Assembly: GCA_012799635.1 (NCBI GenBank)
Contig: JAAZKW010000010.1
Coordinates: 3,308-67,307 of the forward strand
Direction of reading: 5' to 3'
Length of the DNA stretch: 64,000 nucleotides
Source: Mollicutes bacterium
Lineage (GTDB): Bacteria; Bacillota_I; Bacilli_A; RF39; UBA660
This document shows positions 1,741 to 56,999 of the stretch, one piece after another (positions within the stretch are counted from its first letter, which is position 1; every line of letters begins with the position of its first letter). The position numbers and the translations under genes are program-made. The notes beneath the pieces were generated by a model. It saw only the letters and a program-made list of their open reading frames with translations. It was not told the DNA's origin and searched no databases.

Positions 1741-1757
1741 ATAATCCTCACTAATAT

Positions 1758-2324: not shown

Positions 2325-2341
2325 ATTTTATCCTTCTTTCA

Positions 2342-3702: not shown

Positions 3703-3705
3703 CTA

Positions 3706-5169: not shown

Positions 5170-5171
5170 AT

Positions 5172-5789: not shown

Positions 5790-5806
5790 AATATCCTCTC
5801 CTTCTT

Positions 5807-5886
5807 TGTTATTAACATTTTATTAATAACAATAGTTAAAAATTTTAGACAGTTGGCTGTCTGTTATTAACATTTTATTAAAAACA
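5807..5886. promoter_or_regulatory. Two near-identical 25-bp palindromes flanking a 6-bp-stem inverted repeat in the pncA divergent promoter region; candidate operator sites
   Basis: TGTTATTAAcattttaTTAATAACA lies at 5807-5831 and TGTTATTAAcattttaTTAAAAACA at 5862-5886. The first 20 nt of the two sites are identical. AGACAGttggCTGTCT lies at 5847-5862 between them. Confidence 0.5.
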
Positions 5887-5992
5887 AATCCATTTGTCAA
5901 GCTTTTTTTATTAATTTGACAAAAAATAATAAAAAAGTTATGATTTTAATACCAATAGAAAGATATTTTTAGAGCATTATCCGGAGGGAAAA

Positions 5993-6856
5993 ATGGATTC
6001 ACTAATTATAATTCTTATAAAATCAATTACTACTTTCATCACTCAGTATGGAAAAAGCATATTATTAATGTGGTTTGCCACTACTACTGCTGCTTATATT
6101 ACACAGTTTTTTAGTAGTATAAGAGTTTTAAAAGATGCCGCTGACAAAGGTTTTTTAATTGATATGGATAAACTATCAAATATCGAAAAAGAAACAAATC
6201 AAAGTTTTAGAAATGTTGCCTTTCACCAAATGTTAATTCCTTTTAAAAATATATGGGAAGTTTTTAAAAAAGCTAATGAATATGATAAAATGAGGCCATC
6301 AATAATACATACCCTAAATGAACTTTGTTGTTTGATTAAAATGAATCCAAGACAAATAAAAGAATATAATTCTAAACCAACAACATTAAATGCTTTTGCC
6401 TTATCTTATAATATGAAAGAAGAATTAAGCTCTGAAGGATTCATTATTTCGGTAGAAAAGGATAATGGAGAATGTGATAGTAAAATAGAATTTAGACTTG
6501 AGGAAAATGGTGATGTTATTATTACCGAGACCGAAGGCGCAATATCACGGTTATCACTAGAAGAACAAAAAAATGGTGTTTTAGACAATTTAACACTTAT
6601 AGGCGCATTAATAAATATAGCAAATAGCTACTATGAAATTGATGATGATTTAGATGATATAATAGATAATATTGATGAGCTTGATGAAGAAATTGATGAA
6701 ATAAATAATGATTTAGATGTCGTTTTAGCTCAAAGAGAATATTTATTAGATGCAAGAGAAATGCTTTTAACTTTAAAAAGAAATGAATTTCAAACATTTA
6801 ATGTATATTCTTCAGAAGAAAATGCTACTAGACGTTTAAAAATAATAAAAAAATAA
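5993..6856 (+). CDS. Hypothetical membrane-associated protein with an acidic coiled-coil C-terminus
   Basis: 287 aa with a GGAGGG RBS. The N-terminus is hydrophobic and the C-terminal region is D/E/I-rich. No motif was recognised. Confidence 0.6.
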   Translation: MDSLIIILIKSITTFITQYGKSILLMWFATTTAAYITQFFSSIRVLKDAADKGFLIDMDKLSNIEKETNQSFRNVAFHQMLIPFKNIWEVFKKANEYDKMRPSIIHTLNELCCLIKMNPRQIKEYNSKPTTLNAFALSYNMKEELSSEGFIISVEKDNGECDSKIEFRLEENGDVIITETEGAISRLSLEEQKNGVLDNLTLIGALINIANSYYEIDDDLDDIIDNIDELDEEIDEINNDLDVVLAQREYLLDAREMLLTLKRNEFQTFNVYSSEENATRRLKIIKK

Positions 6857-6869
6857 CTGGGACATAAAA

Positions 6870-7422
6870 TTATGTTCTAGTTTTATTTATATAATCTAAA
6901 TATGCTTGAATTAGATCAAAATCTATTATATTTCCTGGAACTTCATCTGGATAAAAAAATTCTAGTCTTTTTGTTTCAAAATTCCCTTTTAAATTTTTTA
7001 TATCTTCTAAAGATATATCAGCCAAATACAAAGAAGTATTATTATAAACAATATCCCCGTTTTTCGGCTCGCTCCTGATAAAGTATCAATTAATTTTATT
7101 TTACTTGAATCTAACCTAATGCCCGTTTCTTCATAAGCTTCCCTAACAGCAGTGTCTTTTAAATCTTCCCCCAAATCTTGACAACCTCCTGGTAGTCCCC
7201 ATTTATTTCTATCAGTTCTTTCTTGCAATAATATTTGCCCTCTTCATTTCTTATAATAATAGCAGCACCAGTCTGTATAAAAGGAATATGGCTAATACGT
7301 TTATCTAAAGCCATTCTAAATAATACGGGGTATCCCCCATAATTTTTACTTAACTCTAATAACTCTTCTTAGGTTAAACTCATTACTAATTTTACAAATT
7401 CTTCATGAGTATAATTTCTCAT
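6870..7422 (-). pseudogene. Nudix hydrolase pseudogene (multiple frame disruptions)
   Basis: The Nudix box GLPGGCQDLGEDLKDTAVREAYEETGI lies in the 7007-7228 ORF. The N-terminal part (MRNYTHEEFVKLVMSLT*, then ...GAAIIIRNEEGK) and the C-terminal part (YFIRSEPKNGDIVYNNTSLYLADISLEDIKNLKG...) are in other frames. At least three lesions are present. Confidence 0.7.
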
Positions 7423-7426
7423 GTTT

Positions 7427-8200
7427 TTAAACTTCATATGACGATCTCCTTTTAAATTTTATGATCAAAGTACTAGGACAATTTTCTACCTTTTCTTTTT
7501 TCCAATAAGTACTTTTATATCCCTTTACATCATCTTTTAATATTGTTTCTTCTTCTAAAATTTTATCTACATAAAAGCCTGCTTCATTAGCGGTATTAAT
7601 TATTGTAGAAATCATTAAATTTTTTTGTGCAAGATTTACTTTATCTTGCCCTTTTGTTATTATTTCGCTTTCTTCATTAAAATAAGATTTATTAATAATT
7701 ACTTTTGCATCCAAAATATCTAAACAACGATAAAAAGGATGAGTCCAACTAATAATCATTGAACCATTTTTATTTAAATATTTATTAACATTTTTTAATG
7801 TTTTTAATAAATCAGATGTATAGCCAATACTAAAAATAAATATTACATAGTCAAAATAATTATTGGGAATATTAACTTCTTCTTCCATCGGAGAAATTAT
7901 AAAATTATCTTTATATTTTGGGAATCTCTTTTGAGCTTCTAATATTTGTTCTTTTGATATATCTAAACCCCAAATTTCTGATGCTCCTTTTTTATATAAA
8001 TACTCTAACGATCCCCCACTTCCACACCCAATATCTAATACTTTTGCATTTTTTATATTATCAATAAGATTTAATTCATCTTCATTTCTTTTTAAAAAAG
8101 GTCCATATTCTGGTAATACAGTATTAGAAAAAGGGGCGTTATTCTTTATTAAATGGTTCCATCCATCTTCATTCATTTTTATAAAATCTTCATTTTTCAT
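7427..8200 (-). CDS. Class I SAM-dependent methyltransferase
   Basis: 257 aa with SAM-binding motif I, VLDIGCGSGGS. Confidence 0.8.
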   Translation of the reverse strand: MKNEDFIKMNEDGWNHLIKNNAPFSNTVLPEYGPFLKRNEDELNLIDNIKNAKVLDIGCGSGGSLEYLYKKGASEIWGLDISKEQILEAQKRFPKYKDNFIISPMEEEVNIPNNYFDYVIFIFSIGYTSDLLKTLKNVNKYLNKNGSMIISWTHPFYRCLDILDAKVIINKSYFNEESEIITKGQDKVNLAQKNLMISTIINTANEAGFYVDKILEEETILKDDVKGYKSTYWKKEKVENCPSTLIIKFKRRSSYEV

Positions 8201-8285
8201 AACAGCCTCCTATGGTATATTATACTTTTATTGTTGCAATTAATAAATAATAATTCAAATTATTAAAAAAGGGTTAGTTTAAACC

Positions 8286-8810
8286 CTATTTTCTATTAAG
8301 TTCTTCTTCTAAACCAAATCTTTCTCTTTCTTCATCTGTAAGTGATAAAACGTATGCTAAATCTTTATTTGCTGAATTATTTCGCGCCCAAAAATCAAAA
8401 TATATTAGATATTGTTCTTCTGTTTCCCCTTCCAATCTTGGGCGGGGGCTTTTATCATGTAGCATTTGCGAGTATAAATACTCCTTTTTCAAAGAACGCA
8501 TATCGCCTTTTAATCCATAACTTACCACATCAGTCCTTAAATTAAACTTTCTAGCATTGTCTAATAAATATTTTGCTGCAACATAATGATTTAATTCCAA
8601 AGCTAACGCAATTGCATTGCCCTTTCTGCCAAACCTAGGTAAAGCCAAATTATCGCCAGAAACTAACACAAGAGAATCTAGAACAGCCTTATCTTCTTCA
8701 ACCCCATAATAGTGAGACATGAACATACTCCATGCTATACCTGCAGCACCAATAAAATCATTGTTTTCCTTCTTCATTTGCTCAATTGTTTCTTGATTTA
8801 TTTCCATCAT
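8286..8810 (-). CDS. Hypothetical protein
   Basis: The ORF is open to 8843, but the ATGATG at 8810 follows AAGGAGAG. No motif was recognised. Confidence 0.55.
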   Translation of the reverse strand: MMEINQETIEQMKKENNDFIGAAGIAWSMFMSHYYGVEEDKAVLDSLVLVSGDNLALPRFGRKGNAIALALELNHYVAAKYLLDNARKFNLRTDVVSYGLKGDMRSLKKEYLYSQMLHDKSPRPRLEGETEEQYLIYFDFWARNNSANKDLAYVLSLTDEERERFGLEEELNRK

Positions 8811-8902
8811 AATAACTCTCCTTTTTTTTATATAATACCACATTATTATTTTTTTACAATATACCTTATATAAACACTAATAATATAATATTCCAACTTT
8901 TA

Positions 8903-11900
8903 TTATTCTGTTCTAAGCGCTTCAACAGGATCTTTCTTTGATGCTACTTTCGCTGGTATTAAACCACCAATTAAAGTTAATATAATTGCCAATATAACTA
9001 ATACAAAAGCATTAAGAATTGGTAATGAAGCATTAAGGGGTATATTTCCAATATAATGATGTAATACTATATTTATTATTGGTATTAATAAATAAGATAT
9101 TCCGATTCCAAATAAACCCGATAACATTCCTATAATAAATGTTTCAGCATTAAATATCGAAGATATATTTCCTTTAGAAGCTCCTATTGCTCTTAAAATA
9201 CCAATTTCTTTGGTTCTTTCATAAACTGATATATAAGTTATTACCCCAATCATAATACTTGATACAACAAGTGAAATAGATACAAAAGCAATTAATACAT
9301 AACTAACAGCATTTACTATTGTTTTAACAGTCGACATCAAAATGCCTGTTGTATCTGTATATTTAATTTCTTTTGGTTCTTCAACACTTTTATTATATTT
9401 ATCTATAAAAGATAAAAAGTTTTCTTTCCCTTCAAAGCTAGTAAAATAAACTGATACATACGTAGGTTCTTCTTTATCTTGATATCCAAGTGATATAAGG
9501 TTTGTTTTTTGAGTGGTTTTACTTGGATTCATTATTGCATTTACTACCCTTGCAAGTTCATCTTCGGTAAAATTTAATGTAAAAGCGGATGCAATTTTAT
9601 CTTGATCAATATTAAATGATGTTGCAAAATTATTTGTAATATTTGCCGTTAATTCTCCAACTTTGGTTAAAACATCTTTTTTTACTTTCGCTTCAGTCAT
9701 TGCTTTAGCCATAACGTCGCCTGTCCCTTTAATTGCAGCACTTTCTATATATGAAGATACAATTGTATCTTTAAGTTCAGGTAATATTATACCCTTAGGA
9801 TTAACACTATCGATAACAAAACCTGGATCTAAAGATGCCATATAAGTATTATATCCTGTAATATATGCTTGTAATAACCCTTTTAATAATCCATTATAAG
9901 TTGTTTTAAATGTGTTTTTAGGAATAACATAATTTTTTTCCATATTCAATAATATATTACTAGCATCAGCTGTATCAAGATAATTATTAACTAACATCTC
10001 AATTTCACTTACACTAAACTCTTTATCAATACTATTTAATAATCCCTTTATTAAAACACTTAAATTATTATTAAATAAATTACTTGCAGGTGTTATATCA
10101 GTTGTAATAAAACTTGCTATCTCATCCATATAATCTTGAGTTTGATTTTCTAGGGTTTTTTTATCAACATTAATATTAAATGCGCTTTTTAATTTCTTAT
10201 TATCAACTTTAACTAAATCGGTAAACTTAAAATCAAAATCGCTTTTTTTACTATCAAATCTATTTCCAGAAAAAACATCTATTTCACTATTTTGCAATTG
10301 TTTTTTTACAATGTTAGTTTCTTTGGAATAATTAATAATATAATCTATTAATTTTGAAGTATATGCTACCCCTGGATTTAAAGCCATTGTTGCAACCCCT
10401 TCTTTGGGACTTACAATTCCAACTATTTTTAATTTAGTTGCATTATCATATAATTTTCTCATATAAGTTTTATCTTCCTGCATATCCTCATAAACATCAT
10501 ATTTAGGATTATATTTATATCGATCCGAAGGCATTATAAGTCTTAAATCACTTTTCATTAACTTTTCATATGTAATCGTCATTGGTTTATTATTTATATC
10601 AACAGTATCCCCACCCATAATACTTGTAATCATTTGAGTAAGTTCTTCAGTATCACGAAGTCCTAAAGAATATACTAATAAATCAGATATACTATCGGGC
10701 TCAGACAATACAATTATCATTTCATCATAATTTTTAGGCCATGAACCAGCTAACATATCATAATCATCTTCAATATCACTGACATCATCAATCATCTGTG
10801 AATATATCGAGGACATTCCAGAATATGAACTCATTAAACTATTTGAACCTATCATTGATGTAAATAAATTACTTGGATTTACTTGAGCTAATTTTTTAGT
10901 TGCATCTATTGTATATATGTTAGGATCTACACTATAAGAATATTTAATGTTTGAAATATCAGTTTCTATTTTATGATAATTTTTTTCAATATATTTTTTA
11001 AAGCTTTTAAGATCATTTGTACTAACGTTGGAAAGCATTGATGTAATATATTGTTGCTCTACCACTTGATTTTTTTCTTTTTTTCCACTACTTTTATTTC
11101 GCATCGATAATAATACACTTGTAATATCAGATGATTCTTGCATAATTGTTAAAGGATAAGACGTTAATGTATCTTCTTGAATCGAATCAACATAATTTTG
11201 AAAACCAGTTGATACAGCCATAATTAAAGCAATACCAATAATACCAATAGATCCTGCAACCGAAACTAAAGTTGTTCTTCCTTTTTTTGTCATTAAATTA
11301 TTAAATGATAATGATAACGCAGTTAAAAAAGACATTTTAGTTTTACTAATCACCTTTTGTTCAACTTCTTTAGTATTAAGTTTTCCATCATAAGGATTAG
11401 AATCACTTATTATTTTTCCATCTTTTAGATTTATAATTCTACTTGAATATTCTTCGGCAAGTTCTGAATTATGAGTAACCATTATAACAAGCTTTTCTTT
11501 AGATATCTCTTTAAGTATTTTCATAATTTGAATACTTGTATCAGAATCAAGTGCACCAGTTGGTTCATCTGCTAAAATTATTTCGGGATTATTTACAAGC
11601 GCTCTTGCAATTGCAACTCTTTGCATTTGCCCACCTGATAGTTGATTAGGTCTTTTATTTGCATGCTTTTCTAACCCAACATCTTTTAATGCCTTTAAGG
11701 CTTTTTTCTTTCTTTCTTCTTTAGAACATCCTGATAAAGTTAATGCTAATTCGACATTTCTTAAAACTGTTTGATGGCCAATTAAATTATAGCTTTGAAA
11801 AACAAATCCTACTCTATGATTACGATAGCTGTCCCAATCACGATCAGAAAAATTCTTAGTACTAACTTCATTAATTATTAAATCTCCTGAATCATAATGA

Positions 11901-12064
11901 TCAAGACCTCCAATAATATTTAGAAAAGTTGTTTTACCACTACCACTGGGACCTAAAATAGAGGCAAATTCACTTTCTCTAAAATTGAGACTTACTTTAT
12001 TTAAAGCTTTTTGTTCAAAATCTCCTGTTTTATATATCTTCGTTATATTTTTTATTTCTAACAT
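8903..12064 (-). CDS. MacB-type fused ABC transporter (N-terminal ATPase plus FtsX-family permease) with a very large extracytoplasmic domain
   Basis: 1053 aa with Walker A GPSGSGKTT, signature LSGGQMQRVAIARAL and Walker B ILADEPTGALD. One TM segment lies near aa 265-285 and a cluster of TM segments after about aa 915. Confidence 0.85.
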   Translation of the reverse strand: MLEIKNITKIYKTGDFEQKALNKVSLNFRESEFASILGPSGSGKTTFLNIIGGLDHYDSGDLIINEVSTKNFSDRDWDSYRNHRVGFVFQSYNLIGHQTVLRNVELALTLSGCSKEERKKKALKALKDVGLEKHANKRPNQLSGGQMQRVAIARALVNNPEIILADEPTGALDSDTSIQIMKILKEISKEKLVIMVTHNSELAEEYSSRIINLKDGKIISDSNPYDGKLNTKEVEQKVISKTKMSFLTALSLSFNNLMTKKGRTTLVSVAGSIGIIGIALIMAVSTGFQNYVDSIQEDTLTSYPLTIMQESSDITSVLLSMRNKSSGKKEKNQVVEQQYITSMLSNVSTNDLKSFKKYIEKNYHKIETDISNIKYSYSVDPNIYTIDATKKLAQVNPSNLFTSMIGSNSLMSSYSGMSSIYSQMIDDVSDIEDDYDMLAGSWPKNYDEMIIVLSEPDSISDLLVYSLGLRDTEELTQMITSIMGGDTVDINNKPMTITYEKLMKSDLRLIMPSDRYKYNPKYDVYEDMQEDKTYMRKLYDNATKLKIVGIVSPKEGVATMALNPGVAYTSKLIDYIINYSKETNIVKKQLQNSEIDVFSGNRFDSKKSDFDFKFTDLVKVDNKKLKSAFNINVDKKTLENQTQDYMDEIASFITTDITPASNLFNNNLSVLIKGLLNSIDKEFSVSEIEMLVNNYLDTADASNILLNMEKNYVIPKNTFKTTYNGLLKGLLQAYITGYNTYMASLDPGFVIDSVNPKGIILPELKDTIVSSYIESAAIKGTGDVMAKAMTEAKVKKDVLTKVGELTANITNNFATSFNIDQDKIASAFTLNFTEDELARVVNAIMNPSKTTQKTNLISLGYQDKEEPTYVSVYFTSFEGKENFLSFIDKYNKSVEEPKEIKYTDTTGILMSTVKTIVNAVSYVLIAFVSISLVVSSIMIGVITYISVYERTKEIGILRAIGASKGNISSIFNAETFIIGMLSGLFGIGISYLLIPIINIVLHHYIGNIPLNASLPILNAFVLVILAIILTLIGGLIPAKVASKKDPVEALRTE

Positions 12065-12152
12065 GTTACCACCCTTTGCTCAAGTTAATTATTATAACAT
12101 CTATCAAATAATTATTCTAGGTAAATGAAGATATTTTTGATATAATTGTTTT

Positions 12153-12908
12153 ATGTTAAAAAGAAAATTTAAAAATAAATATAATTATGAAAATTTACCT
12201 GAAGATGCTGTTGTTGTTAAGAACTGGGAACCGTTAAAATTTGAAATTAAAGATAATTACAAATATATATCTGAAAATATTGTTTTTAATTGCTTTTCAA
12301 ATATCTTTGGTTTCATTGCTGCCATAATATTAACCGTTTTTAATAAGATATTTTATGGATACAAAATTAAAAATAAAAATAAGATTTTAAAAAACACGGG
12401 ATTTATAAGCATATCTAATCATATTCATCAAATGGATTGTACTTTTATAGCCCTTTCATATTTTCCTCGGAGAGTATATTTTCCTACTTTAGCAAGCAAT
12501 TTTAAAATACCAGTTGTAAGACACATCATAAAATTATTTTATGCCATCCCTATACCAAAAAAATCTAAACAATTGCTAACTTTCTATAATAAGATTATTA
12601 ACGCTTTAAAAAAAGGAAAGATTGTTCATATGTATCCAGAAGGTTCTTTATGGCCATATTATGATAAAATTAGAAACTTTAAAGAAGGAGCATTTAAAAT
12701 GGCAGTAGATGCTGGTGTTCCTATCCAACCAGTTATATTTAAATATAAACAAAGATGGTATAAAATAAAACCCGCAATTATATGCGAAATATTAGACCCA
12801 ATATATCCAAATAAAGAACTTAAAAGAAATGATTGTATAAAAGATCTGAAAAATAGATGTTTAAATGAAATGAGGAAAGAAAATGAAAGTATTAATACTA
12901 TCCTGTAA
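12153..12908 (+). CDS. 1-acyl-sn-glycerol-3-phosphate acyltransferase family protein
   Basis: 251 aa with the HX4D motif (NHIHQMD) and a YPEGS second acyltransferase motif. The N-terminus is hydrophobic. Confidence 0.7.
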   Translation: MLKRKFKNKYNYENLPEDAVVVKNWEPLKFEIKDNYKYISENIVFNCFSNIFGFIAAIILTVFNKIFYGYKIKNKNKILKNTGFISISNHIHQMDCTFIALSYFPRRVYFPTLASNFKIPVVRHIIKLFYAIPIPKKSKQLLTFYNKIINALKKGKIVHMYPEGSLWPYYDKIRNFKEGAFKMAVDAGVPIQPVIFKYKQRWYKIKPAIICEILDPIYPNKELKRNDCIKDLKNRCLNEMRKENESINTIL

Positions 12909-13956
12909 TACAGGGGGCGGACATAATTCATGTGGTAAGTATATTAAAGAAGAGTTGCTTTTTAATAATATTGAGTGTGACTTTAAAAATTATTTTGAAA
13001 TAGTAAATTTAAGTAAAAAGGATTTCTCAGATAAATTATATATAGGTTCTCTTGGTAAAAAAGGTGGTTTATTTAAATATATGTATAAAATGGGAGAAGC
13101 TTATGATAAGATGAATATCAAATCACCAGTATACCTAGCAAACCAATTACATGCTAATAAGCTTTATAAATTTATTGATGAAAATAAGTATGATTTAGTT
13201 ATATGTCCCCATTTATTTCCGGGACAAGCATTAACAGAAATAAATAAAAAACATCATATAAACTTTATCTTTGTGGCAACTGATTATGAATATCACCCTT
13301 TTACTGATGAGATAAAAGCAGATTATTATGTTATTCCCAAAGGTTTAGAAGAAAGATTTATATCTAAAGGTATTGATGAAAATAAATTACTATCTTTTGG
13401 TATCCCTATATCTAGTAAATTTATTACTAATGCTAAATTAATTAAAAAGAATAATGAAAATAAAAAAAATATTTTAATTCTTTTAGGTAGTATGGGGTTT
13501 GGCAGTATTAATAAAATACTTGATGATCTTCTTAATATTAAAAATATATATATTACTATAGTTTGTGGTAATAATCATAAGTTATATAATGAATTAAATA
13601 ATTATAATAATGAAAATTTAAATATAATAGGCTTTTCTAAAAACATCAATGATTTAATCAAGTCATCCGATATTGTTATCTCTAAACCTGGGGGTCTTTC
13701 TTCAACAGAAATAGCTTGTTTTAGAAAAGGTCTTATTCATGTTTTCCCTATTCCAGGAGTTGAAACAAGTAATACAGAGTTTTTTAGCAAACATAATTTA
13801 AGTTTTGTTGCTAATAATAAAGAAGAAATAATTAATTATATTAATCTTCTTATTAATGATAATAAAATTTATAATAAGATGATTGAAAGTCAAAAAGAAA
13901 TGATTAATCAAAACAGTGCTATGGATTTAGTAGCATTCATTAAAGACAAATATTAA
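12883..13956 (+). CDS. Diacylglycerol glycosyltransferase (MGDG synthase / UgtP-like, GT28 family)
   Basis: 357 aa with the N-terminus MKVLILSCNTGGGHNS typical of the UgtP/MGDG synthase family. It overlaps the acyltransferase gene by 26 nt. Confidence 0.7.
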   Translation: MKVLILSCNTGGGHNSCGKYIKEELLFNNIECDFKNYFEIVNLSKKDFSDKLYIGSLGKKGGLFKYMYKMGEAYDKMNIKSPVYLANQLHANKLYKFIDENKYDLVICPHLFPGQALTEINKKHHINFIFVATDYEYHPFTDEIKADYYVIPKGLEERFISKGIDENKLLSFGIPISSKFITNAKLIKKNNENKKNILILLGSMGFGSINKILDDLLNIKNIYITIVCGNNHKLYNELNNYNNENLNIIGFSKNINDLIKSSDIVISKPGGLSSTEIACFRKGLIHVFPIPGVETSNTEFFSKHNLSFVANNKEEIINYINLLINDNKIYNKMIESQKEMINQNSAMDLVAFIKDKY

Positions 13957-13970
13957 ATTATTTATTTTTT

Positions 13971-14038
13971 TATACCAAATAAAAATGTCTTATATTTAAG
14001 ACATTTAATGTCATTTATAGAGTCCTTGAAAGGATTTG
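13971..14038. repeat. Left direct repeat of the tRNA-Arg island: terminator hairpin plus a displaced 17-nt tRNA-Arg 3' fragment
   Basis: 68 nt. It shares perfect blocks tataccaaataaaaatgtctta (22 nt) and gtccttgaaaggatttg (17 nt), plus the aatgtctta/taagacatt hairpin, with 21112-21178. Confidence 0.85.
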
Positions 14039-14105
14039 CATTATTCCTATTCTAAACTGTTTTTTCTGTTCTTTTATTGATAATTTACCCTACAATGAAA
14101 CTATT

Positions 14106-16061
14106 TTATAAACCCCCTTTATAAAAATAAATTTTCATGGCATTATCTGAATATATTGGTTTAGACACATCAATATCCAAAACTTTACCAATATAATATA
14201 TTATGAATTGTGACGCAATAAGCAAATCAAATTCTGCTAAAATGCCATCATATTTACTTTCAATTAATATATAATCATTATCTAAATACTTTAACAGTTC
14301 AATTTCATATTTAGTAGTAGATTTTTGCTTAAAATATATTGAAAAATTATTTCCTAAATTTTCATAATTAATAAATCTTCCATGAGAAAAATTCTTTTTT
14401 TCATGAATTATACAATTAAATATGCCCGATTCAATAATTTTACTTTCTAAATCGTAACAAGCAGCATCAGTATAATCGCCTCTAAAAATATTCACCAAAT
14501 TATTCTTTTTTATTTTTTCTATTATTTTTTTATCTACTAATCCTTCTATTTGTCTGTCCCAATACATAATTGATTTTTTTATAAAATCGTTAATATCAAT
14601 ATCATAATTTACTTTCTCTAAATAATATTTTAAAAATATTGCTGCTGGGGCTACAGCTCCTTCGAACGAAAGAAATCCTCTCTCTTTTCCTTTATTAGAC
14701 GCAGTTCTATAACTTAATATATTTTCCTTCAAAAAATCTGTTTTTAATACTATATTTTGCAGTTCGCCTTTTGTAATTATATAAACATCCTTCTTATCAA
14801 ACTCTCTAGCGCTGCAAACAATATCATTAGTTGTTCCTGAATATGAAAACAAAATAATTTTATTAATATTACTATTATTTCTATATAATATATCTCTCGG
14901 ATATAATGAATAAGTATTACATCCATATAATGCATTTATTACTTTTGATGAAAAAATTGAACCAGCATATGATCCTCCTGTGCCTATAAATAAACAGTTT
15001 GTATCTTTACAAAAACCGATTTCTTCTAATTTTTTACATGCTGGGGAATTAACAGCATTAATAACTCTCTTTTCTAGATTGTTTATATTAATATTACATC
15101 TTTTTATTTTTTTTCTTTCAATAAGATCAAATTTATCACACGTACAAGTTTCATTTACTTTTTTTAATTTAAACAATGAATTTATGTGTCCTCTTGCGCC
15201 TATTTTTGAAACAACTTTAGCAGTGAGTTTGTTAGATTTCAAATACCACTTTTTTAATTTATGTGAATCATATTTAAAATCGTTTTTTATACTATCTTTA
15301 ATAACACTTGAAATAAATGCATCCCCCGCACCAGTAGAATCTACTACATCACCTTTTAATTCAAGCTCGAAATTATGAACTTTATTATTTGCTATAAATG
15401 TTGCACCATCCTCACCCCTTGTGATAGTCATTAAATTAGGGTTGATGATCTTATATAAGTCAATGTCGTTTTTTAAGTTTAACCTTTTTAAAAGGTAATT
15501 ACTTACTCTTTCATTAAAATTAATTATCTCAAATTTTTGCTTTAACTTTTTTATTATTTCATCATTTGACATATTTTCTAACTCAAAATACTGACCTAAA
15601 TCAATTATTTTTTTATTAATAGTATTATCAATTATTATTTGGTTCTTTATATTTAAATTGTCAAAAACTAAAATATCATCTGTTTTAATGTTAGCAAGAA
15701 CATAATTGGTTTCCAATAAGCTTTCATCATACCATTTTTTACTATTACAAAATGGGCATCTTTTTTTAGAAGTTAAGAACAATTTGCCGTTTTTTTCATA
15801 ATAAGATACATGAAAGCACCTCGTTCTAGTACCTTCAACAATTTTTATATTATCTATATCAACTTTAAGTTTTTCTAAACTTTTAATTGCAATTTTTCCC
15901 TGGTCATCATTACCACAACAAGCAAACACCGTAGTCTTCAACCCCATTTTTGCTAAATTAGCAATTATATTTTGTGAGGTCATACCACCATTTACGCCTA
16001 ATAATTTGTCATCTTTATAATAAAAATCTGTTACTAAATCTCCTATGCTTACTACTCTCAT
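14106..16061 (-). CDS. Fusion protein: PfkB-family sugar kinase (N-terminal) plus a double SIS phosphosugar isomerase/deglycase-like domain (C-terminal)
   Basis: 651 aa. The PfkB signature DSTGAGDAF lies near aa 240. The first SIS motif is FIGTGGSYAGS ... LFSYSGTTND. The second half, LESKIIESGIFNCIIHEKKNFSHGRF, resembles the GlmS/AgaS/FrlB C-terminal SIS domain. CxxC (CPFCNS) and CTC...C cysteine clusters are present. Confidence 0.75.
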   Translation of the reverse strand: MRVVSIGDLVTDFYYKDDKLLGVNGGMTSQNIIANLAKMGLKTTVFACCGNDDQGKIAIKSLEKLKVDIDNIKIVEGTRTRCFHVSYYEKNGKLFLTSKKRCPFCNSKKWYDESLLETNYVLANIKTDDILVFDNLNIKNQIIIDNTINKKIIDLGQYFELENMSNDEIIKKLKQKFEIINFNERVSNYLLKRLNLKNDIDLYKIINPNLMTITRGEDGATFIANNKVHNFELELKGDVVDSTGAGDAFISSVIKDSIKNDFKYDSHKLKKWYLKSNKLTAKVVSKIGARGHINSLFKLKKVNETCTCDKFDLIERKKIKRCNININNLEKRVINAVNSPACKKLEEIGFCKDTNCLFIGTGGSYAGSIFSSKVINALYGCNTYSLYPRDILYRNNSNINKIILFSYSGTTNDIVCSAREFDKKDVYIITKGELQNIVLKTDFLKENILSYRTASNKGKERGFLSFEGAVAPAAIFLKYYLEKVNYDIDINDFIKKSIMYWDRQIEGLVDKKIIEKIKKNNLVNIFRGDYTDAACYDLESKIIESGIFNCIIHEKKNFSHGRFINYENLGNNFSIYFKQKSTTKYEIELLKYLDNDYILIESKYDGILAEFDLLIASQFIIYYIGKVLDIDVSKPIYSDNAMKIYFYKGGL

Positions 16062-16249
16062 TTTAATATCCTCCTTTTGTCATTAAAAATATTACAAAAA
16101 TCGCTCAACGATTCATTGCCTATATAACACTGAATTATATTATGCATATTAAAAGTTAAAAATATAAGTTCGTCTTGAAATCTCTTAGATTTATCTGTTA
16201 TTTCTTTATTAAAATAACTTTCTTTTATCCACATATCAACCTCATTTAC

Positions 16250-17122
16250 TCAAACCGTTATGAAAGATAAAAACACATCCTTATCTTTTATTTCAATAAT
16301 ACAATTATAGCCTGACATAAAAGACTTTATTCTATTATAATTAAGAATATCATTATTATAACAATAAGACATTATAATTCTACCTATATCCAATAATGGC
16401 GAATTAAATCTTACTAACTCAAAGTCCAATATTTTAGGCATATCTTTTTCAAAAAGAATATTATCAGCAGCGAAATCGCCATGAGTCATAGAAATAGGTA
16501 TTTCATCGATTATATTTATTTCACTTAATAATGTTAATATTTTTTGGTGTTTTATTAATAACTCATAATATAGCTTGGGAGTGTTTTGATTTTTCTTATT
16601 GACTTTAGCTTCATATCTTTCAAACAATTTATCAATTGTTGGAATTTTTAAATATTCCCCTTTGTAAGGAGTTTTATCCACGTTTCTAAATAAATAATGC
16701 ATTTTAGCGCATTCTCGCCCAAGATAATATAATTGAACATCATTAATACTTTCTCTTAAAACATGATGACCACTCAAAAAACCTATTAATGCTAAACGAT
16801 CATTACCATAAGGCAATAATATTCTATTTTTCTTATCGGGTTCTATATACTCACAATTTAGATTATTGCAATACATAACATTTTCTATTCTTAAATTATT
16901 TAAAAGTTGATTATCCAAATAATCAGTAGAAAATTCATTGTTACTCATTTTACTCACTTTTCTTGAACTAAATATTTTTATAACATATTTGGTATTTGCT
17001 AAATCTCTACATATGAATTTTTTATTCATCCATCCACCAGACAATATATTAATATCGACAAGCTCAATTCCATAATTTTCATAGATTATAACCTTTAAAT
17101 TACTTTCCACCATTATCACCAT
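16250..17122 (-). CDS. Aminoglycoside/choline/fructosamine-kinase-like phosphotransferase (APH fold), ending at an in-frame TGA
   Basis: 290 aa with the Brenner motif HGDFAADNILF and ILDFE. The same frame stays open for 63 more codons after the TGA at 16250-16252 and ends in an ATGA overlap with the next gene at 16058-16061. Confidence 0.7.
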   Translation of the reverse strand: MVIMVESNLKVIIYENYGIELVDINILSGGWMNKKFICRDLANTKYVIKIFSSRKVSKMSNNEFSTDYLDNQLLNNLRIENVMYCNNLNCEYIEPDKKNRILLPYGNDRLALIGFLSGHHVLRESINDVQLYYLGRECAKMHYLFRNVDKTPYKGEYLKIPTIDKLFERYEAKVNKKNQNTPKLYYELLIKHQKILTLLSEINIIDEIPISMTHGDFAADNILFEKDMPKILDFELVRFNSPLLDIGRIIMSYCYNNDILNYNRIKSFMSGYNCIIEIKDKDVFLSFITV

Positions 17123-18071
17123 CTATATATTCCTTTGCTATTTTAATTATTTCTTCGATTGTTTTTCTATTTGAAAAACCTGCTGCATGTGTATGCCCAC
17201 CACCAGTTAATAATTCTGCTAATTTACTTGCATCTAATTTGTTTTTACTACGTATCTCACCCTTCTTTTTATTTCCAAAATCCATTATTACTATCATAAC
17301 ATCAATATCTTCTCTACTTAAAATAGCAGGAATACATTTTTTTGAAATATCAGAATAAGAGACTAAATTAAATAGTGGTTTTTTCATATCTAGAACTACA
17401 TAATGAAAGTTAGATACTATTAAATTATTATTTATATAAGAAATAATATCCATTTCGTTTTTTGTCTTTTCTAAATAAAATTTCTTTATCAAAAATTCAC
17501 CATCAACATCATTCTTTAATAATTTACTAACTATAGAAAATGTTTTACTTGAAGCAGCATTAGAAAATAAATTAGTATCACTTATTATTCCTGTAAAAAT
17601 AAGTTCAGATATTTTTTTATCACAATTAAGATCCAACTTTTTTATAATGTCATAAATTATTTCACAAGTAGAACTTGCACTATAATCACTTAAAATAAAT
17701 TCAGCATTTGTTATGTTACCATTATGATGATCAATATTAATCCTATAATTTGCATTATTATAATATTCTTCAATAGAATCAGGCAATCTTGAAGTTCTAT
17801 TTAAATCTATTGCTATAAAGGTAAAATCTTTTGATGTAATTTTTTGACACAATAAATCATTTAAATCAAAATAACTAATTTTATTTATACTTTCAGGTTC
17901 AATAAATGCTTTTACATTTTTATTGATTTTTTTTAAACCATACGCTAATGCTAAAGATGAACACATTGAATCATAGTCGGCATTTTTATGTCCAGCAATT
18001 ATAATATCATTTGACAAGTTTTTAAGTATATCTGCTAGCTTTTTTGTATTTTTTTTCTTAACATTTTTCAT
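17100..18071 (-). CDS. DHH/DHHA1 family phosphoesterase (NrnA-like paralogue)
   Basis: 323 aa with AGHKNADYDSMCSS (DHH motif I/II region), NIDHHNGN (DHH) and GGGHTHAAGF (DHHA1 GGGH). Confidence 0.8.
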   Translation of the reverse strand: MKNVKKKNTKKLADILKNLSNDIIIAGHKNADYDSMCSSLALAYGLKKINKNVKAFIEPESINKISYFDLNDLLCQKITSKDFTFIAIDLNRTSRLPDSIEEYYNNANYRINIDHHNGNITNAEFILSDYSASSTCEIIYDIIKKLDLNCDKKISELIFTGIISDTNLFSNAASSKTFSIVSKLLKNDVDGEFLIKKFYLEKTKNEMDIISYINNNLIVSNFHYVVLDMKKPLFNLVSYSDISKKCIPAILSREDIDVMIVIMDFGNKKKGEIRSKNKLDASKLAELLTGGGHTHAAGFSNRKTIEEIIKIAKEYIDGDNGGK

Positions 18072-20389
18072 TTTAATAATCTCCTTTTATATTCTCCTAC
18101 TTCACTATTGTCATTATAATCATGATTTTTTATTAAACACTCAATAATCTTTTTCCTATTTATATCAAATACTCCTATACTGTCTTTATAATCAATCTTA
18201 CCGTCTTTATTTTTCCATTCATTATCTTTCCAACTATAAGGACTGCTATAGCATAATCCATAAATATAATCAAAGAATAAATGAAAATCAACAGCTGCGA
18301 TATTATCTAAAAACATTTGGTCAATTCGATTAATTCCCGGATATCTAACGATACATATATTATTAACATCTATATCACTATCATATAAGGAATTAATTGC
18401 CAATTGTAATGTTTTCCCAGTTAAAACGTTATCATCAAAAAGGTCTACATTAGAATGCCTAAATACATTAGAATTAATTAGTCCGCCATATTCATTAATA
18501 TTAAATTTTCTTAAATCTATAAGTTGTTTATTTGAATATCCAGAAACTTCTTTATTGAATTTAAGAAGTAAAAGGCTTTCAATTGTATTTTTATCAACTA
18601 TCTTTGCAATTATTGGCAATTCGATTCCACCATAGCTTAAACCACATGCGTTAATATAATCATTAGTATTACCTCTTTTTTCTTTATATAAAGATACTGC
18701 CGTATAATTTTCACCAAAATTATCTATTTCACGATATGCTCTATAGTCTTTTGAATAATCCTTTTTTTCATTGCTTAATTGTTCTATCATAAAATTATCA
18801 TTAATTAATTCTTTTGACTTGCGTACTAAATTACACACTAGATCTTTATTTATTAAAACCTTTTCTTCAAAACATATTTTACTCATTATATCTTCTATTT
18901 CAAATAAGATATTATATATATCATTAAAATCTTTATTTTCTTTTGAAGAAATATCTAATAAAATATTATCGTTTACATTATTTGAAACAAGTTTATGATT
19001 CATTATAACTAATAATACATTCCTACAATTATCTAAAATTCCGAGCAACAATTTTTTGTTAATTAAAGAATTTATTTCCTTAGTATTTAATATAGCCTGC
19101 TCAGCATCATTTAAAAACCGAATGTAATTACGATGCCATTCTAACACATTATTTTTTGTTGTTATATCTCTGCCATTTAAACTTATTCTATTTGCTAGAA
19201 AGTAATAATATGTAGACGACCCCCTAAGAAGATAATTATTATCATCTCTTAACAAATAAATTAAATTACCATCTGCTTGTGAATTCCAAAATTCTTTTAG
19301 AGAATTATTTGATATAAGTTCCCATTCATACATAGGTATCAATATACTTCCGCTTGATTTATCAAACAAACCATCTATTCCATCATCGGTTTCGAAATTC
19401 TTATTTATTATTTCATTATATTTTTTTAATAATTTTTTCCTTCCTAATACAATCTTTTTTTCGGCAATTGCAAAATTCAATTTATAACTTAATATATCAG
19501 CTTTTTCTAAACAAACAGTCGGCAAAATTTTAGAATTATTTATTAGCTCGATTGTTGCAACAACACCTTTTAAAATGTTCCCATTTTCATCAAATATTGG
19601 GAAACAAGAATCTACTGAGCCGCTAGTTTTATCAACACTATAACCTTGTTGACAGTTTAACATTAAATAGTCGTTTCCATGAATGTCTCCGCAATCTCCA
19701 ACTCTCATCATCGAATTTTTAGGAACACCTATTATTTTTTCAACCCTTTCAATGGCCTTATCCTTAGTAGTTGTACCTATTTGAATGATAGTATTATCTT
19801 TATATATTCCCCTAGTTAAATAAATTCCTGCAAGCTTATTAGCAGAAATTATTTTTTCAAGAGCATCATTTACTTCTTTGATAATATTGGCATTTTTAAT
19901 TTTAAAAACTAGTCTAATATTAATAATAGTGTTAGTTTTTAAATCTTTTGAATATGTTATATCAAAATAATTGCTATTAATATTTTTAATTGTAGCATTT
20001 ATTTTCATTAATTGATTTAATTCATCTTTTGTAGTTATATAAGTATCTTGAGATAGAAATTCTTCGTATGAAGCACCATTACTATAAAAAAGTCGTGCCC
20101 CATCATTTGTTAATACATGAATTCTTTTAATATCATTATCTGTTATCCCAATTGAATTAGCAATAAAATCATATATATCATTTTTAAAATCGTTTAGTCC
20201 TGTTTCGCCACGCCCTGTTATAAAAACCACTGGCACTTTTCTCTTTAAAAGCTCAATAATTAATTTAATGGCCCTGTTATCTATTTTTTTTGATTTTTCT
20301 TCTGTTAAGGTCCCATTAATATCAAAACAAACGGCATTATACTTTTGTTCAAGTGATTTTTTAAAATTATAATATAGTTCATTTTTCAT
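18068..20389 (-). CDS. Multidomain protein: N-terminal Cof-type HAD-IIB domain, unassigned central region, C-terminal type I phosphoribosyltransferase-like domain
   Basis: 773 aa. HAD motif I is FDINGTLT (Asn at the D+2 position). Motif II is VVFITGRGETG and motif IV is VGDCGDIHGNDYLML. A PRPP-loop-like sequence, VDLFDDNVLTGKTLQLA, lies near aa 650. Confidence 0.65.
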   Translation of the reverse strand: MKNELYYNFKKSLEQKYNAVCFDINGTLTEEKSKKIDNRAIKLIIELLKRKVPVVFITGRGETGLNDFKNDIYDFIANSIGITDNDIKRIHVLTNDGARLFYSNGASYEEFLSQDTYITTKDELNQLMKINATIKNINSNYFDITYSKDLKTNTIINIRLVFKIKNANIIKEVNDALEKIISANKLAGIYLTRGIYKDNTIIQIGTTTKDKAIERVEKIIGVPKNSMMRVGDCGDIHGNDYLMLNCQQGYSVDKTSGSVDSCFPIFDENGNILKGVVATIELINNSKILPTVCLEKADILSYKLNFAIAEKKIVLGRKKLLKKYNEIINKNFETDDGIDGLFDKSSGSILIPMYEWELISNNSLKEFWNSQADGNLIYLLRDDNNYLLRGSSTYYYFLANRISLNGRDITTKNNVLEWHRNYIRFLNDAEQAILNTKEINSLINKKLLLGILDNCRNVLLVIMNHKLVSNNVNDNILLDISSKENKDFNDIYNILFEIEDIMSKICFEEKVLINKDLVCNLVRKSKELINDNFMIEQLSNEKKDYSKDYRAYREIDNFGENYTAVSLYKEKRGNTNDYINACGLSYGGIELPIIAKIVDKNTIESLLLLKFNKEVSGYSNKQLIDLRKFNINEYGGLINSNVFRHSNVDLFDDNVLTGKTLQLAINSLYDSDIDVNNICIVRYPGINRIDQMFLDNIAAVDFHLFFDYIYGLCYSSPYSWKDNEWKNKDGKIDYKDSIGVFDINRKKIIECLIKNHDYNDNSEVGEYKRRLLK

Positions 20390-20396
20390 ATTTTAG

Positions 20397-20913
20397 TCAC
20401 CTCCTTAACAAAAATTCTAAACTTTTAACCTTTCCATCTGTATCATTTGAAAGGTTTTTATCAAAAAGTAATCCATTTCCACCATTTTCATTCCATAATC
20501 TAACATTTTTCTTCAAATCGTCAATTAAAATTTGTCCATTTGGTATAACAACGTTATGTTTTTTTATACCTGGTGGAACAAAAATTACGGGGCAATAAAT
20601 TTTTCTATGTTCTCTTAAATATTCTATTTTAACTTTCATCTCATTTAAAGTATGTATTTTAGTTAAGATAGCAATTTTCTTTTTTAAGGATTCAAGCTCT
20701 CTAATTATTTCAACTGAATTATTTATTGAACTAGCTTCTCTTATTATATAATCCCATTCTTCTTGGTGAATATTAGTATAATCAAAATAATCATCAAATT
20801 CTTTTTTCATCTTTATGATTATGAAAACCAGCATTATATTTTCTTTCTAACATTCTTTCCTCAGAATCAAGTATAACCCCATCAAAATCAATATAAACAA
20901 AATCATCCATCAT
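20397..20913 (-). CDS. HAD-superfamily 5'(3')-deoxyribonucleotidase-like protein (NT5C family), interrupted by a frame change at an A6 tract
   Basis: ATGATG at 20908-20913 follows GGAGG and encodes MMDDFVYIDFDGVILDSE (DxDxV motif I), then stops at 20794-20796. The +1 frame (track ORF 20397-20834) carries the rest (...ILIDDLKKNVRLWNENGGNGLLF). The frames meet at GAAAAAAG (20802-20807 on the plus strand as T6). Confidence 0.6.
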
Positions 20914-20935
20914 ATCAATCCTCCGCCTCGGAAAT

Positions 20936-20944
20936 ATTATAACA
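20936..20944 (-). promoter_or_regulatory. Extended -10 element (TGTTATAAT) for the island operon
   Basis: The reverse complement of attataaca reads TGtTATAAT. It lies about 23 nt upstream of the GGAGG-ATG of the first island gene. No good -35 element was seen. Confidence 0.45.
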
Positions 20945-21111
20945 CACTCTTTTGAGATATTTGGTTTTTTATTTTATTTATATATCAACCCCATTCTTTT
21001 TTTATCAATACATATTGCTTTGCATAAGCATCTTTAATATTAATATGAATTGGCTACTTATTTTAATGATTTATTTCTTATTATAAGAACCCCATAAAGC
21101 GATACCACATT

Positions 21112-21178
21112 TATACCAAATAAAAATGTCTTAAATTATAAGACATTTATACTCACATGGCGTCCTTGAAAGGATTTG
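21112..21178. repeat. Right direct repeat of the tRNA-Arg island: terminator hairpin plus the genuine tRNA-Arg 3' end
   Basis: 67 nt, matching 13971-14038 (see the left repeat). The last 21 nt are part of the intact tRNA. Confidence 0.85.
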
Positions 21179-21234
21179 AACCTTCGACCTTCCCCTTAGG
21201 AGGGGGATGCTCTATCCAGCTGAGCTACAAGGAC
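21158..21234 (-). tRNA. tRNA-Arg (anticodon CCT)
   Basis: The reverse complement is GTCCTTGTAGCTCAGCTGGATAGAGCATCCCCCTCCTAAGGGGAAGGTCGAAGGTTCAAATCCTTTCAAGGACGCCA. It folds as a cloverleaf with anticodon loop CUCCUAA and an encoded CCA. Confidence 0.9.
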
Positions 21235-21246: not shown

Positions 21247-22350
21247 TTATCTTAAATACCAAAGATTATTACCATCTTTTGATACACTATCTATAAAACC
21301 ACAGCCTATACATTCATCTTTATAATATAAGACACATGCTTGACCTGGGGTAACACTTTTAACATTTTCATAATTAACTTTTATTTTATTATTATCTAAA
21401 TATTCTATTTGGACAGGATATTCTTTACCTTGATGTCTAAATTTAGCAGTTAAATCTTGATATTTATCATCAGTTAACAAATTAACATTATCTATTATAC
21501 AACTATCTGAATATAAATACTTAGAATCACCATAAGCAATATATAAAATATTTTTACTGATGTCCTTACCACAAACATAATGTCTTTCCTTATTACCTGA
21601 TAGACCTACATTTCTTCTTTGACCTATTGTATAATTCATTAAACCATTATGTTTACCAATAACTTTTTTAGTTTCTACATCTACTATATCACCAGGATTT
21701 GGTTTTAAATAATTTTTAATAAATTCTTGATAATTTCTTTCTCCAATAAAGCAAATACCGGTAGAATCTTTTTTATCAGATACAGTTATCTTAGCTTCTT
21801 TTGCAATCTTTCTAACTTCTTTTTTAGTATAATCTCCTAAAGGAAATAAGACATTATCAAAACTTCCCTTATTAACATCTGCTAAAAAGTAAGTTTGGTC
21901 TTTATTAACATCTTTTGCTTTAAATAATCTTCCATTTTTACTTTTTGCATAATGACCTGTAGCAACAAAATCTGCTCCTAATTTTTTTGCTTCTTTAAGA
22001 AATAAATCAAATTTAATATATTTATTACATAACATATCAGGATTAGGGGTTCTTCCTTTTTTAAGTTCCTCTAAAAAATAAGTGAAAACATAATCCCAAT
22101 ATTCTTTAATAAAATCTACTCGATACAAAGGAATATTTAAATCTTCACAAACTTTTTTAGCATCATTATAATCTTTTTCTTGGGGACATATGTCATCAAA
22201 ATCATTTGGGTTACCTAAAATGTCATTATTGATATTACTATCCCAATTACGCATAAATAAAGCTATAACATCATAGCCTTCTTTTATTAATAGATATGCA
22301 GCAACGGCACTATCTACTCCACCGCTCATTCCAACAACAACTTTTTTCAT
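21247..22350 (-). CDS. mnmA: tRNA-specific 2-thiouridylase
   Basis: 367 aa with the PP-loop VGMSGGVDSAVAA and a typical MnmA length. Confidence 0.9.
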   Translation of the reverse strand: MKKVVVGMSGGVDSAVAAYLLIKEGYDVIALFMRNWDSNINNDILGNPNDFDDICPQEKDYNDAKKVCEDLNIPLYRVDFIKEYWDYVFTYFLEELKKGRTPNPDMLCNKYIKFDLFLKEAKKLGADFVATGHYAKSKNGRLFKAKDVNKDQTYFLADVNKGSFDNVLFPLGDYTKKEVRKIAKEAKITVSDKKDSTGICFIGERNYQEFIKNYLKPNPGDIVDVETKKVIGKHNGLMNYTIGQRRNVGLSGNKERHYVCGKDISKNILYIAYGDSKYLYSDSCIIDNVNLLTDDKYQDLTAKFRHQGKEYPVQIEYLDNNKIKVNYENVKSVTPGQACVLYYKDECIGCGFIDSVSKDGNNLWYLR

Positions 22351-55295: not shown

Positions 55296-55378
55296 ATATA
55301 TTATATCATTATTATCGTCTTGTTATCAAATTTAATTGCTTTTTCACATGAAATATACTATAATTAACTTGTTTTACA

Positions 55379-55454
55379 CGCCCATAGCTCAACTGGATAG
55401 AGCGTTAGACTACGGATCTAAAGGTTGGGGGTTCAAATCCCTTTGGGCGTGCCA
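55379..55454 (+). tRNA. tRNA-Arg (anticodon ACG)
   Basis: ACGCCCATAGCTCAACTGGATAGAGCGTTAGACTACGGATCTAAAGGTTGGGGGTTCAAATCCCTTTGGGCGTGCCA. The acceptor stem pairs as 7 bp, the anticodon loop is CUACGGA, and CCA is encoded. Confidence 0.9.
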
Positions 55455-55484
55455 TAAATAATAACCGTCATAAGACGTTAAAAA

Positions 55485-55515: not shown

Positions 55516-55524
55516 CTTATCAAA

Positions 55525-56896: not shown

Positions 56897-56929
56897 TTTT
56901 TTTACACATGATAAAATCATTTTACAAGA

Positions 56930-56992: not shown

Positions 56993-56999
56993 ATAAGAC

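Follow-up and report, generated by a model that had tools for sequence, protein, structure and literature searches.

Why are tRNA-Arg(CCT) and a convergent glycosyltransferase gene held apart by a block of DNA that is bounded by two copies of a short direct repeat, and by what route did that block arrive? The block, which we call the island, lies in a stretch of 64,000 nucleotides (nt) of contig JAAZKW010000010.1 (the window, with positions counted from its first letter), from an uncultured gut or digester bacterium of the RF39-like Bacilli that is labelled 'Mollicutes bacterium'. A preliminary description of the window had read the repeats as the footprint of site-specific integration at a tRNA gene. 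The repeats and a comparison with the closest other species support that reading, and the mechanism itself we infer from the footprint: the island is probably the decayed, integrase-less remnant of an integrative genomic island that entered the 3' end of tRNA-Arg(CCT). It is framed by the following features, in which att denotes an integrase attachment site and MGDG monogalactosyldiacylglycerol.

12883-13956, plus strand: glycosyltransferase gene, MGDG-synthase-like, convergent with the island (Pfam; remnant in the outgroup contig L010)
13969-14038: left direct repeat (attR-like), 70 nt (MAFFT and global alignment)
21110-21178: right direct repeat (attL-like), 69 nt (MAFFT and global alignment)
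21158-21234, minus strand: intact tRNA-Arg(CCT), downstream of mnmA (ARAGORN)
21247-22350, minus strand: mnmA, upstream of the tRNA (Pfam, 5.5e-77)

The repeats stand where they had been placed, are slightly longer than first claimed, and match in 61 of 71 aligned columns (86% identity). Both perfect blocks reported within them, of 22 and 17 nt, occur exactly twice in the window even when up to three mismatches are allowed, the expected counts on those terms being 0.02 and 0.21. The local alignment score between the two repeat regions is 89, whereas 623 other real tiles of 200 nt from the window reach 36 at most and 500 shuffles reach 35. ARAGORN and Rfam agree on the tRNA (RF00005 places it at 21161-21234, with 69.2 bits), and the right repeat contains its 3' 21 nt. 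As the preliminary description proposed, the 17-nt block is the 3' portion of this tRNA: CAAATCCTTTCAAGGAC on the tRNA strand comprises the last 5 nt of the T-loop, the 3' strand of the T-stem and the 3' acceptor strand. Read on the minus strand, the right repeat runs from the T-loop to the acceptor end, then through GCCA, a spacer and a 10-bp hairpin to TTTTTATTTGGTATAAA. In the left copy the 17-nt block is followed directly by TCTA instead of GCCA, and the spacer between tRNA block and hairpin (13-15 nt) diverges strongly between the copies. The hairpin is present in both, as claimed, with an AU-rich stem of 10 bp rather than 9; its stems and the tail are identical in the two repeats, and TTTTTATTT lies directly 3' of it on the minus strand of each. 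Hairpin and tail together are a low-GC terminator of the tRNA, and from this composition it follows that the repeat consists of a tRNA tail and the terminator of that tRNA. The two copies begin to match in the T-loop, a part of tRNA genes in which integrase att sites have been reported (bioRxiv 10.1101/2020.11.02.365908). The island, about 7.1 kb between the repeats, thus starts inside or immediately after the 3' end of tRNA-Arg(CCT), and at its far side the left repeat abuts the glycosyltransferase stop codon, carrying the displaced 17-nt fragment of the tRNA 3' end and then TCTA.

A hairpin with a U-tract that looks functional and ends a transcription unit is found in each copy, as would be expected if the repeat were a generic terminator, some other sequence that recurs between genes, or a resemblance due to chance, and told nothing about how the 7 kb arose. 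We regard this as highly improbable, and reject it because of the copy number: the preliminary description had raised the case of a generic sequence repeated at many loci, and the window holds two copies in 64 kb. In addition, the alignment score lies far above the background of real sequence, the repeat includes 17 nt of tRNA sequence for which a terminator has no need, and a search of about 100 related loci for the repeat or its hairpin gave nothing beyond short, chance-level matches. An Rfam scan of the island found no riboswitch and no other RNA, the tRNA being the sole match.

What the locus looked like without the island can be read from an outgroup. A search of GTDB with MnmA recovered 80 species loci, in only one of which (L010, from the closest other species, with an MnmA 88% identical) the tRNA still adjoins mnmA. 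The gene order there, QueH-dUTPase-DUF2207-mnmA-tRNA-Arg(CCT), is that of the window. The tRNA ends at L010 position 11181, and 26 nt further on, on the opposite strand, lie the last 22 codons of the glycosyltransferase gene (11208-11276, encoding ...MINQNNSKDLLYFIKDKY; the window protein ends in ...MINQNSAMDLVAFIKDKY), so that no cassette separates the tRNA from the glycosyltransferase 3' end. At the DNA level the left repeat of the window and the adjoining glycosyltransferase end align with the tRNA tail, trailer and glycosyltransferase end of L010; the match to the trailer includes ATAA after the CCA position, and the native ACCA corresponds to TCTA in the left repeat. Given this alignment of the left repeat and its flank to the L010 junction, we read the 7.1 kb as inserted DNA and the left repeat as the native tRNA tail in displaced form, in agreement with the preliminary description. 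The outgroup shows an arrangement in which, in the probable ancestral layout, mnmA, tRNA-Arg and a terminator would have met the convergent glycosyltransferase gene.

The L010 junction shows two further features. At 11193-11224 the tRNA terminator hairpin of L010 draws part of its sequence from the final glycosyltransferase codons (KDKY), whose stop codon falls in the loop; at the corresponding place in the window (13957-13990) one arm of this hairpin type carries two mismatches, and the terminator is formed by another hairpin. The sequence that follows the L010 tRNA had been considered a methyltransferase fragment, and tblastn ruled this out, assigning it to the glycosyltransferase 3' remnant and a fragment of a 155-amino-acid (aa) open reading frame (ORF).

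Beyond L010 the comparison reaches its limit quickly. In no collection searched was there an outgroup closer than L010, and relatives more distant than it (the MnmA relatives are uncultured Bacilli, 'Mycoplasma sp. CAG' and Tenericutes metagenome-assembled genomes) show no synteny on either side of the locus. Metagenomes of the Joint Genome Institute (JGI) yielded five glycosyltransferase loci at 66-74% identity, none with a tRNA; in the three that were read, other genes follow the glycosyltransferase gene (on the same strand in L100 and L101). When the protein searches were widened, no non-self glycosyltransferase came closer than 73% identity, and the next MnmA (79%) has no tRNA beside it. 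Within the species, the island and identical repeats are present in all of seven to nine contigs, which come from six or more samples and have 99.7-100% identity to the window. Every contig that reaches the region has the island, other contigs break at the tRNA, and the island is fixed in the sampled population. The empty-site comparison proposed at the outset has therefore been answered in part, by a single contig of another species that lacks the cassette, whereas the same-species contigs all carry it.

The break points at the tRNA are themselves worth recording. Contigs L004 and L005, from slightly different strains, both end at window position 21195, the first base past the anticodon loop of tRNA-Arg, and L007 ends 10 nt from them, at 21205. 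These ends could mark a branch in the assembly graph, for example a variant or an element that uses the anticodon-loop sublocation, or could reflect low coverage.

An element integrated at a tRNA might be expected to carry its own recombinase or other traces of mobility. In agreement with the preliminary description, six-frame scans of the island against Pfam, NCBIfam, PHROGs and PADLOC found no recombinase between the repeats, nor did one turn up when the 30 largest ORFs of the remaining window sequence and the gene calls covering 11-32 kb were examined. A 345-aa ORF beside tRNA-Pro was considered as a trans-acting integrase and set aside, since it has a predicted membrane anchor and no recombinase features. 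The island contains no relaxase or transfer genes, and no collection searched held a cognate element or integrase for this tRNA-Arg site. Nor is the island a prophage remnant: its PHROGs matches are only to families of auxiliary metabolism or of undefined function (deoxyribonucleotidase, DHH), phage structural, replication and lysis genes are absent by the same scan, only the tRNA was matched in a nucleotide search of phage and plasmid records, and the corresponding protein search gave one distant plasmid homologue and no phage match. The compositional test called for at the start was divided in its outcome. The tetranucleotide profile of the island is the most deviant of the 7-kb windows (top 2%, z about 2.5), although its GC content equals that of the flanks; its GC at third codon positions is slightly raised, and this together with the tetranucleotide deviation lends weak support to a foreign origin.

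The cargo genes all lie on the minus strand. In the list below the genes run from the tRNA-proximal end to the glycosyltransferase side, with the unique sequence that borders each repeat.

21009-21109, minus strand: unique inner flank of about 100 nt that separates the right repeat from the WYL remnant (not homologous to the WYL genes of L090, L091 and L094)
20984-21008, minus strand: 3' end of a WYL-regulator gene, a remnant of about 25 nt (blastn boundary at 21008 or 20984; alignment A2)
20936-20944, minus strand: conserved TGTTATAAT, a putative extended -10-like element upstream of the first cassette gene (kept in the window, L090, L091 and L094)
20397-20913, minus strand: NT5C-like HAD 5'(3')-nucleotidase gene, frameshifted (PHROG deoxyribonucleotidase, 1.7e-11)
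18068-20389, minus strand: 773-aa fusion protein (TIGR01484, HAD-IIB, 1.2e-11)
17100-18071, minus strand: DHH/DHHA1 phosphoesterase (NrnA-like), first gene of the variable slot (Pfam, 5e-21)
16058-17122, minus strand: APH-family small-molecule kinase gene, split by a stop codon (Pfam APH)
14106-16061, minus strand: 651-aa PfkB sugar/nucleoside kinase fusion, last gene of the module (Pfam PfkB, 3.7e-17)
14039-14105, minus strand: unique inner flank of 67 nt from the PfkB stop codon to the left repeat (homology to other modules ends at the stop codon)

Outside the window, the module was examined in seven neighbourhoods of related Bacilli. There its order is a WYL/helix-turn-helix (HTH) regulator (196 aa), a 171-aa nucleotidase, the 773-aa fusion, a variable slot and a 650-aa PfkB fusion (for example L090 5848-12627 and L094 8836-14268). 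The cargo of the window is 72-86% identical to these modules in protein and 76-84% in nucleotide sequence. The neighbourhoods are mutually unrelated, and none adjoins tRNA-Arg or mnmA. What occupies the slot varies: nothing in L094-L096 and L099, genes for a CAT-like acetyltransferase and an alpha/beta hydrolase in L090 and L097, decayed fragments in L091-L093 and, in the window only, DHH and APH kinase genes. At the seven loci module homology runs from the WYL start codon to the PfkB stop codon, and a WYL gene precedes every module whose contig extends that far. In the window, two segments, 21008-18064 and 16080-14102, have nucleotide homology to the other modules (76-84% identity); since the first starts at 21008, only the last 25 nt or so of the WYL gene are kept. 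This truncation occurs in the window alone. Neither inner flank has a match elsewhere beyond short, AT-rich, chance-level ones.

The truncation at the tRNA-proximal end had escaped the preliminary description, as had a frameshift in the first gene. A 1-nt frameshift in an A6 run near 20803-20810 splits the nucleotidase into a 39-aa ORF, which carries the DxD motif, and a 145-aa ORF; intact homologues have 171 aa and are 85% identical across both frames. The split is present in every independent same-species assembly and is thus a real pseudogene or a slippage site, not a sequencing error. A third point missed there is that a 58-aa ORF is the C-terminus of the APH kinase, cut off by a TGA at 16250-16252 that leaves ORFs of 290 and 58 aa in the window and in most strains. 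In one strain contig (L008, 99.77% identical) a single-base difference at 16250 gives TGG and an intact 354-aa kinase (4305-5369); the stop is ongoing pseudogenisation of the cargo at strain level.

These observations can be assembled into an account of the island's formation. An incoming element would have carried an att site mimicking the tRNA from the T-loop on, plus a terminator, and recombination would have taken place inside the 17-nt block CAAATCCTTTCAAGGAC. The element's copy would now complete the functional tRNA and supply its terminator, forming the right repeat, and the host's original tRNA tail would have been pushed 7.1 kb towards the glycosyltransferase side, losing its CCA, to become the left repeat. 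Integrase genes normally sit at the tRNA-proximal end of such islands, and the truncated WYL gene at that end suggests a deletion there. A later deletion may thus have taken away the integrase gene together with the WYL gene, of which about 25 nt are left; the unique sequence at 21009-21109 is presumably the scar where both once lay. What is left would be a non-autonomous island with both att-like repeats and a decaying cargo, in which the nucleotidase is frameshifted and, in most strains, the kinase is interrupted by a stop. As to the hairpin shared by the repeats, the window lineage may have gained this terminator before integration, the att site of the element being homologous to it. If the island can still excise, the predicted junctions of the excised form are:

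attB: ...GGTTCAAATCCTTTCAAGGAC then TCTATAAATGACATT...
attP: ...GGAATAATGCAAATCCTTTCAAGGAC then GCCATGTGAGTAT...

The island shares several traits with the tRNA-associated islands and prophages of tyrosine integrases. It lies immediately 3' of a tRNA whose sequence is completed by the neighbouring repeat, and a displaced fragment of the tRNA 3' end stands at the opposite border; the repeats begin within the T-loop and extend over the 3' acceptor strand. The island is missing from the nearest other species, and its cargo genes recur in other genomes in different surroundings. It differs from them in having no integrase gene or remnant and a GC content that is not atypical. Another parallel is offered by the cis-mobilisable elements (CIMEs) of streptococci, which lack integration genes and retain attL and attR (PMC5704250). 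CIMEs and the island have in common attL/attR-type repeats at the 3' end of their target gene, the loss of genes for integration and transfer, and a presumed origin by decay of an integrative element. However, CIMEs are defined by mobilisation through accretion with an incoming integrative and conjugative element (ICE), whereas for the island no cognate ICE, integrative and mobilisable element (IME) or integrase is known, and its host belongs to a reduced-genome uncultured lineage of Bacilli rather than to the streptococci.

Several observations weigh against the proposed integration. The collections searched gave no sign of an integrase or its remnant, an excised circle or a related element with an integrase, and the only match to the 17-mer in IMG/VR fell by chance within a 1110-aa phage ORF. 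The island has the GC content of its flanks, and in other genomes the cassette has no common flanks or terminal repeats that would mark mobile ends. Exact look-ups of MnmA, the glycosyltransferase and the acyltransferase found no empty site in the same species. The outgroup evidence comes from one contig of a metagenome-assembled genome. That contig has itself undergone a deletion of about 12.4 kb that starts inside the glycosyltransferase gene, the region being otherwise collinear: past the glycosyltransferase remnant it is joined to the fragment of the 155-aa ORF (window 1273-1740), followed by NadK at 76% identity. Finally, the repeat of the island reaches about 50 nt past the tRNA and takes in the terminator, which sets it apart from typical tyrosine-integrase islands, and L010 has no counterpart of the 37-nt hairpin segment present in both window repeats; a simple integration into an L010-like site leaves the hairpin in the displaced copy unexplained.

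This last point also bears on an alternative, an origin without a recombinase, or in several steps. Either a circular DNA with a homologous tRNA tail and terminator entered by a single RecA-dependent crossover of the Campbell type, which we grade as the weaker alternative, or two related elements accreted in tandem and the body of the older was deleted, in which case the left repeat would be the old junction fused to the glycosyltransferase end. The extension of the approximately 70-nt repeat well past the tRNA, into a hairpin that L010 lacks, is accommodated by such an origin, and the contrast between strongly different spacers and identical hairpin stems and tail fits two related att-type junctions better than neutral drift. 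The lack of an integrase in the island is also in keeping with it, and tandem accretion and decay at tRNA sites are documented (PMC5704250). Even so, we consider it unlikely. After the CCA position the left repeat continues with the ATAA of the native L010 trailer, which suggests host origin, the repeat has its inner boundary within the T-loop, which is what integrase sites would predict and arbitrary homology would not, and no trace of a second element was found; for the RecA route in particular, 70 nt at 86% identity is a poor substrate.

The deletion in L010 also bears on a second alternative, in which the cassette is ancestral at this locus and L010 lost it, by deletion between the repeats or within its larger deletion. 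Such a history would agree with the presence of the island in every same-species contig, with a GC content equal to the flanks, and with a cargo identity to other Bacilli of 72-84%, which resembles that of MnmA among the same Bacilli (68-88%); moreover, L095 and L096 have a homologue (64% identical) of an ABC gene that neighbours the island, at a distance of about 7 kb from the module. We nonetheless judge it to be quite improbable, because L010 has a single site without the hairpin-type repeat that a deletion between repeats would leave, because the WYL gene is truncated in the window alone, and because a repeat that contains a tRNA 3' fragment still requires an event of the integration type. 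The adjacency of mnmA and tRNA-Arg with the module is, furthermore, found nowhere else. We therefore retain integration at the tRNA 3' end, followed by loss of the integrase, as the probable history.

Two of the comparisons just mentioned can be described more fully. The L010 deletion (L010 11208-11650 against window 1494-13888) spans the NAD-salvage genes, a methyltransferase, the 1053-aa ABC protein, an acyltransferase and most of the glycosyltransferase gene, and it has fused the glycosyltransferase 3' remnant to the middle of the 155-aa ORF that precedes NadK. In L095 and L096 the homologue of the 1053-aa ABC/FtsX protein of the window (8903-12064), 64% identical over 318 aa, lies at 21369-22319, about 7 kb downstream of the module and in the same orientation; its presence there may be coincidence, residual synteny or a functional link, for example as an exporter.

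If the island was acquired in this way, what did it bring? The largest protein, of 773 aa, has an N-terminal HAD-IIB phosphatase, a helical middle domain and a C-terminal phosphoribosyltransferase-like domain. Across its family the HAD motifs are invariant, with the full HAD-IIB set, the C-terminal domain has a phosphoribosyltransferase-type DDNxTTG loop, and 13 of 49 members match Pribosyltran. No solved structure matches it by sequence; its AlphaFold2 model (predicted local distance difference test, pLDDT, 91.9) finds IMP-specific 5'-nucleotidase ISN1 as the closest of its best Foldseek matches in the PDB, together with Cof-type HAD phosphatases. Many homologues have 72-84% identity, and the family, counted at E <= 0.001 in a set of 1.84 billion cluster representatives, has 372 representative clusters at 50% identity. 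The PfkB fusion is 73-81% identical in L090-L099, and its C-terminal half has weak similarity to SIS isomerases (NCBIfam PGI/PMI SIS, residues 348-437). The DHH phosphoesterase, among the loci sampled, was seen only in the species of the window, being absent from L090-L099, and is only 32% identical to the housekeeping DHH protein of the window.

The one distant plasmid homologue extends this picture. On Bacillus cereus plasmid pRML02 (L106, NZ_CP011157.1, 105228-107323) a 473-aa protein is related to residues 321-765 of the 773-aa protein, that is, to its middle and phosphoribosyltransferase domains, and is followed by a CatA-like O-acetyltransferase, a pairing that recurs in the modules of L090 and L097. 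The surroundings contain an extra metG and genes for an aminotransferase, an acyl carrier protein, a pyridoxal-phosphate-dependent decarboxylase, an adenylating enzyme and an ABC transporter, a context that points to small-molecule biosynthesis.

Taken together, the cargo is a conserved, uncharacterised nucleotide and sugar-phosphate enzyme module, whose most likely, though weakly supported, role would be to make or modify a nucleoside-like small molecule. The fusion of a phosphoribosyltransferase with an IMP-nucleotidase-like phosphatase could conceivably convert a base and phosphoribosyl pyrophosphate (PRPP) to a nucleotide and then to a nucleoside, and the PfkB fusion and the small nucleotidase could, equally tentatively, act on the sugar or the nucleotide side. 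In the slot, the enzymes (acetyltransferase with esterase, or kinase with phosphoesterase) have the appearance of tailoring activities.

Many defence systems are WYL-regulated accessory operons. The module resembles these in being headed by a WYL/HTH regulator in other genomes, and this regulator, together with the variable contexts, is compatible with a role in defence. It resembles nucleoside-type clusters such as that of pRML02 in that, in L090 and L097, a protein of the 773-aa type lies next to a CatA-like acetyltransferase. The window copy differs from both in having no WYL gene and two broken genes, and none of its six cargo proteins has a match in PADLOC-DB v2 at E <= 0.01. We thus rejected assignment to a known anti-phage defence system, the link to WYL being seen in the relatives alone. 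A more specific scenario, which we offer as a doubtful possibility, is that of an undescribed WYL-controlled module of three core genes with a swappable slot (CAT and esterase, DHH and APH kinase, or nothing), devoted to a nucleoside-like metabolite (for an antibiotic or immunity function, or for a novel nucleotide-based one against phages) and riding on tRNA-Arg-specific elements among gut and digester Bacilli, of which the window copy would be a cis-mobilisable remnant, excisable even now by a related integrase.

Elsewhere in the window, two regions drew our attention in their own right. At 55378-57117, tRNA-Arg(ACG) and tRNA-Pro(TGG) bracket plus-strand genes for a GNAT acetyltransferase and a DUF3800 protein within minus-strand surroundings, which could be another small accessory insert at a tRNA. 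At 46297-51050 lie two close genes of the NrdD type of anaerobic ribonucleotide reductase, both with ATP-cone domains, the second of which has a much weaker match to the NRDD family.

The mechanism proposed here is a textbook one and the feature is of a common kind, so that the island adds little that is new on mechanism. It provides a worked example of an att-flanked, integrase-less island in an RF39-like lineage, and it documents the horizontal acquisition of genes at a tRNA and their later decay in uncultured Bacilli with reduced genomes. The cargo module, with its 773-aa HAD-phosphoribosyltransferase fusion, its interchangeable slot and its link to a plasmid cluster, is a reasonable target for functional work.

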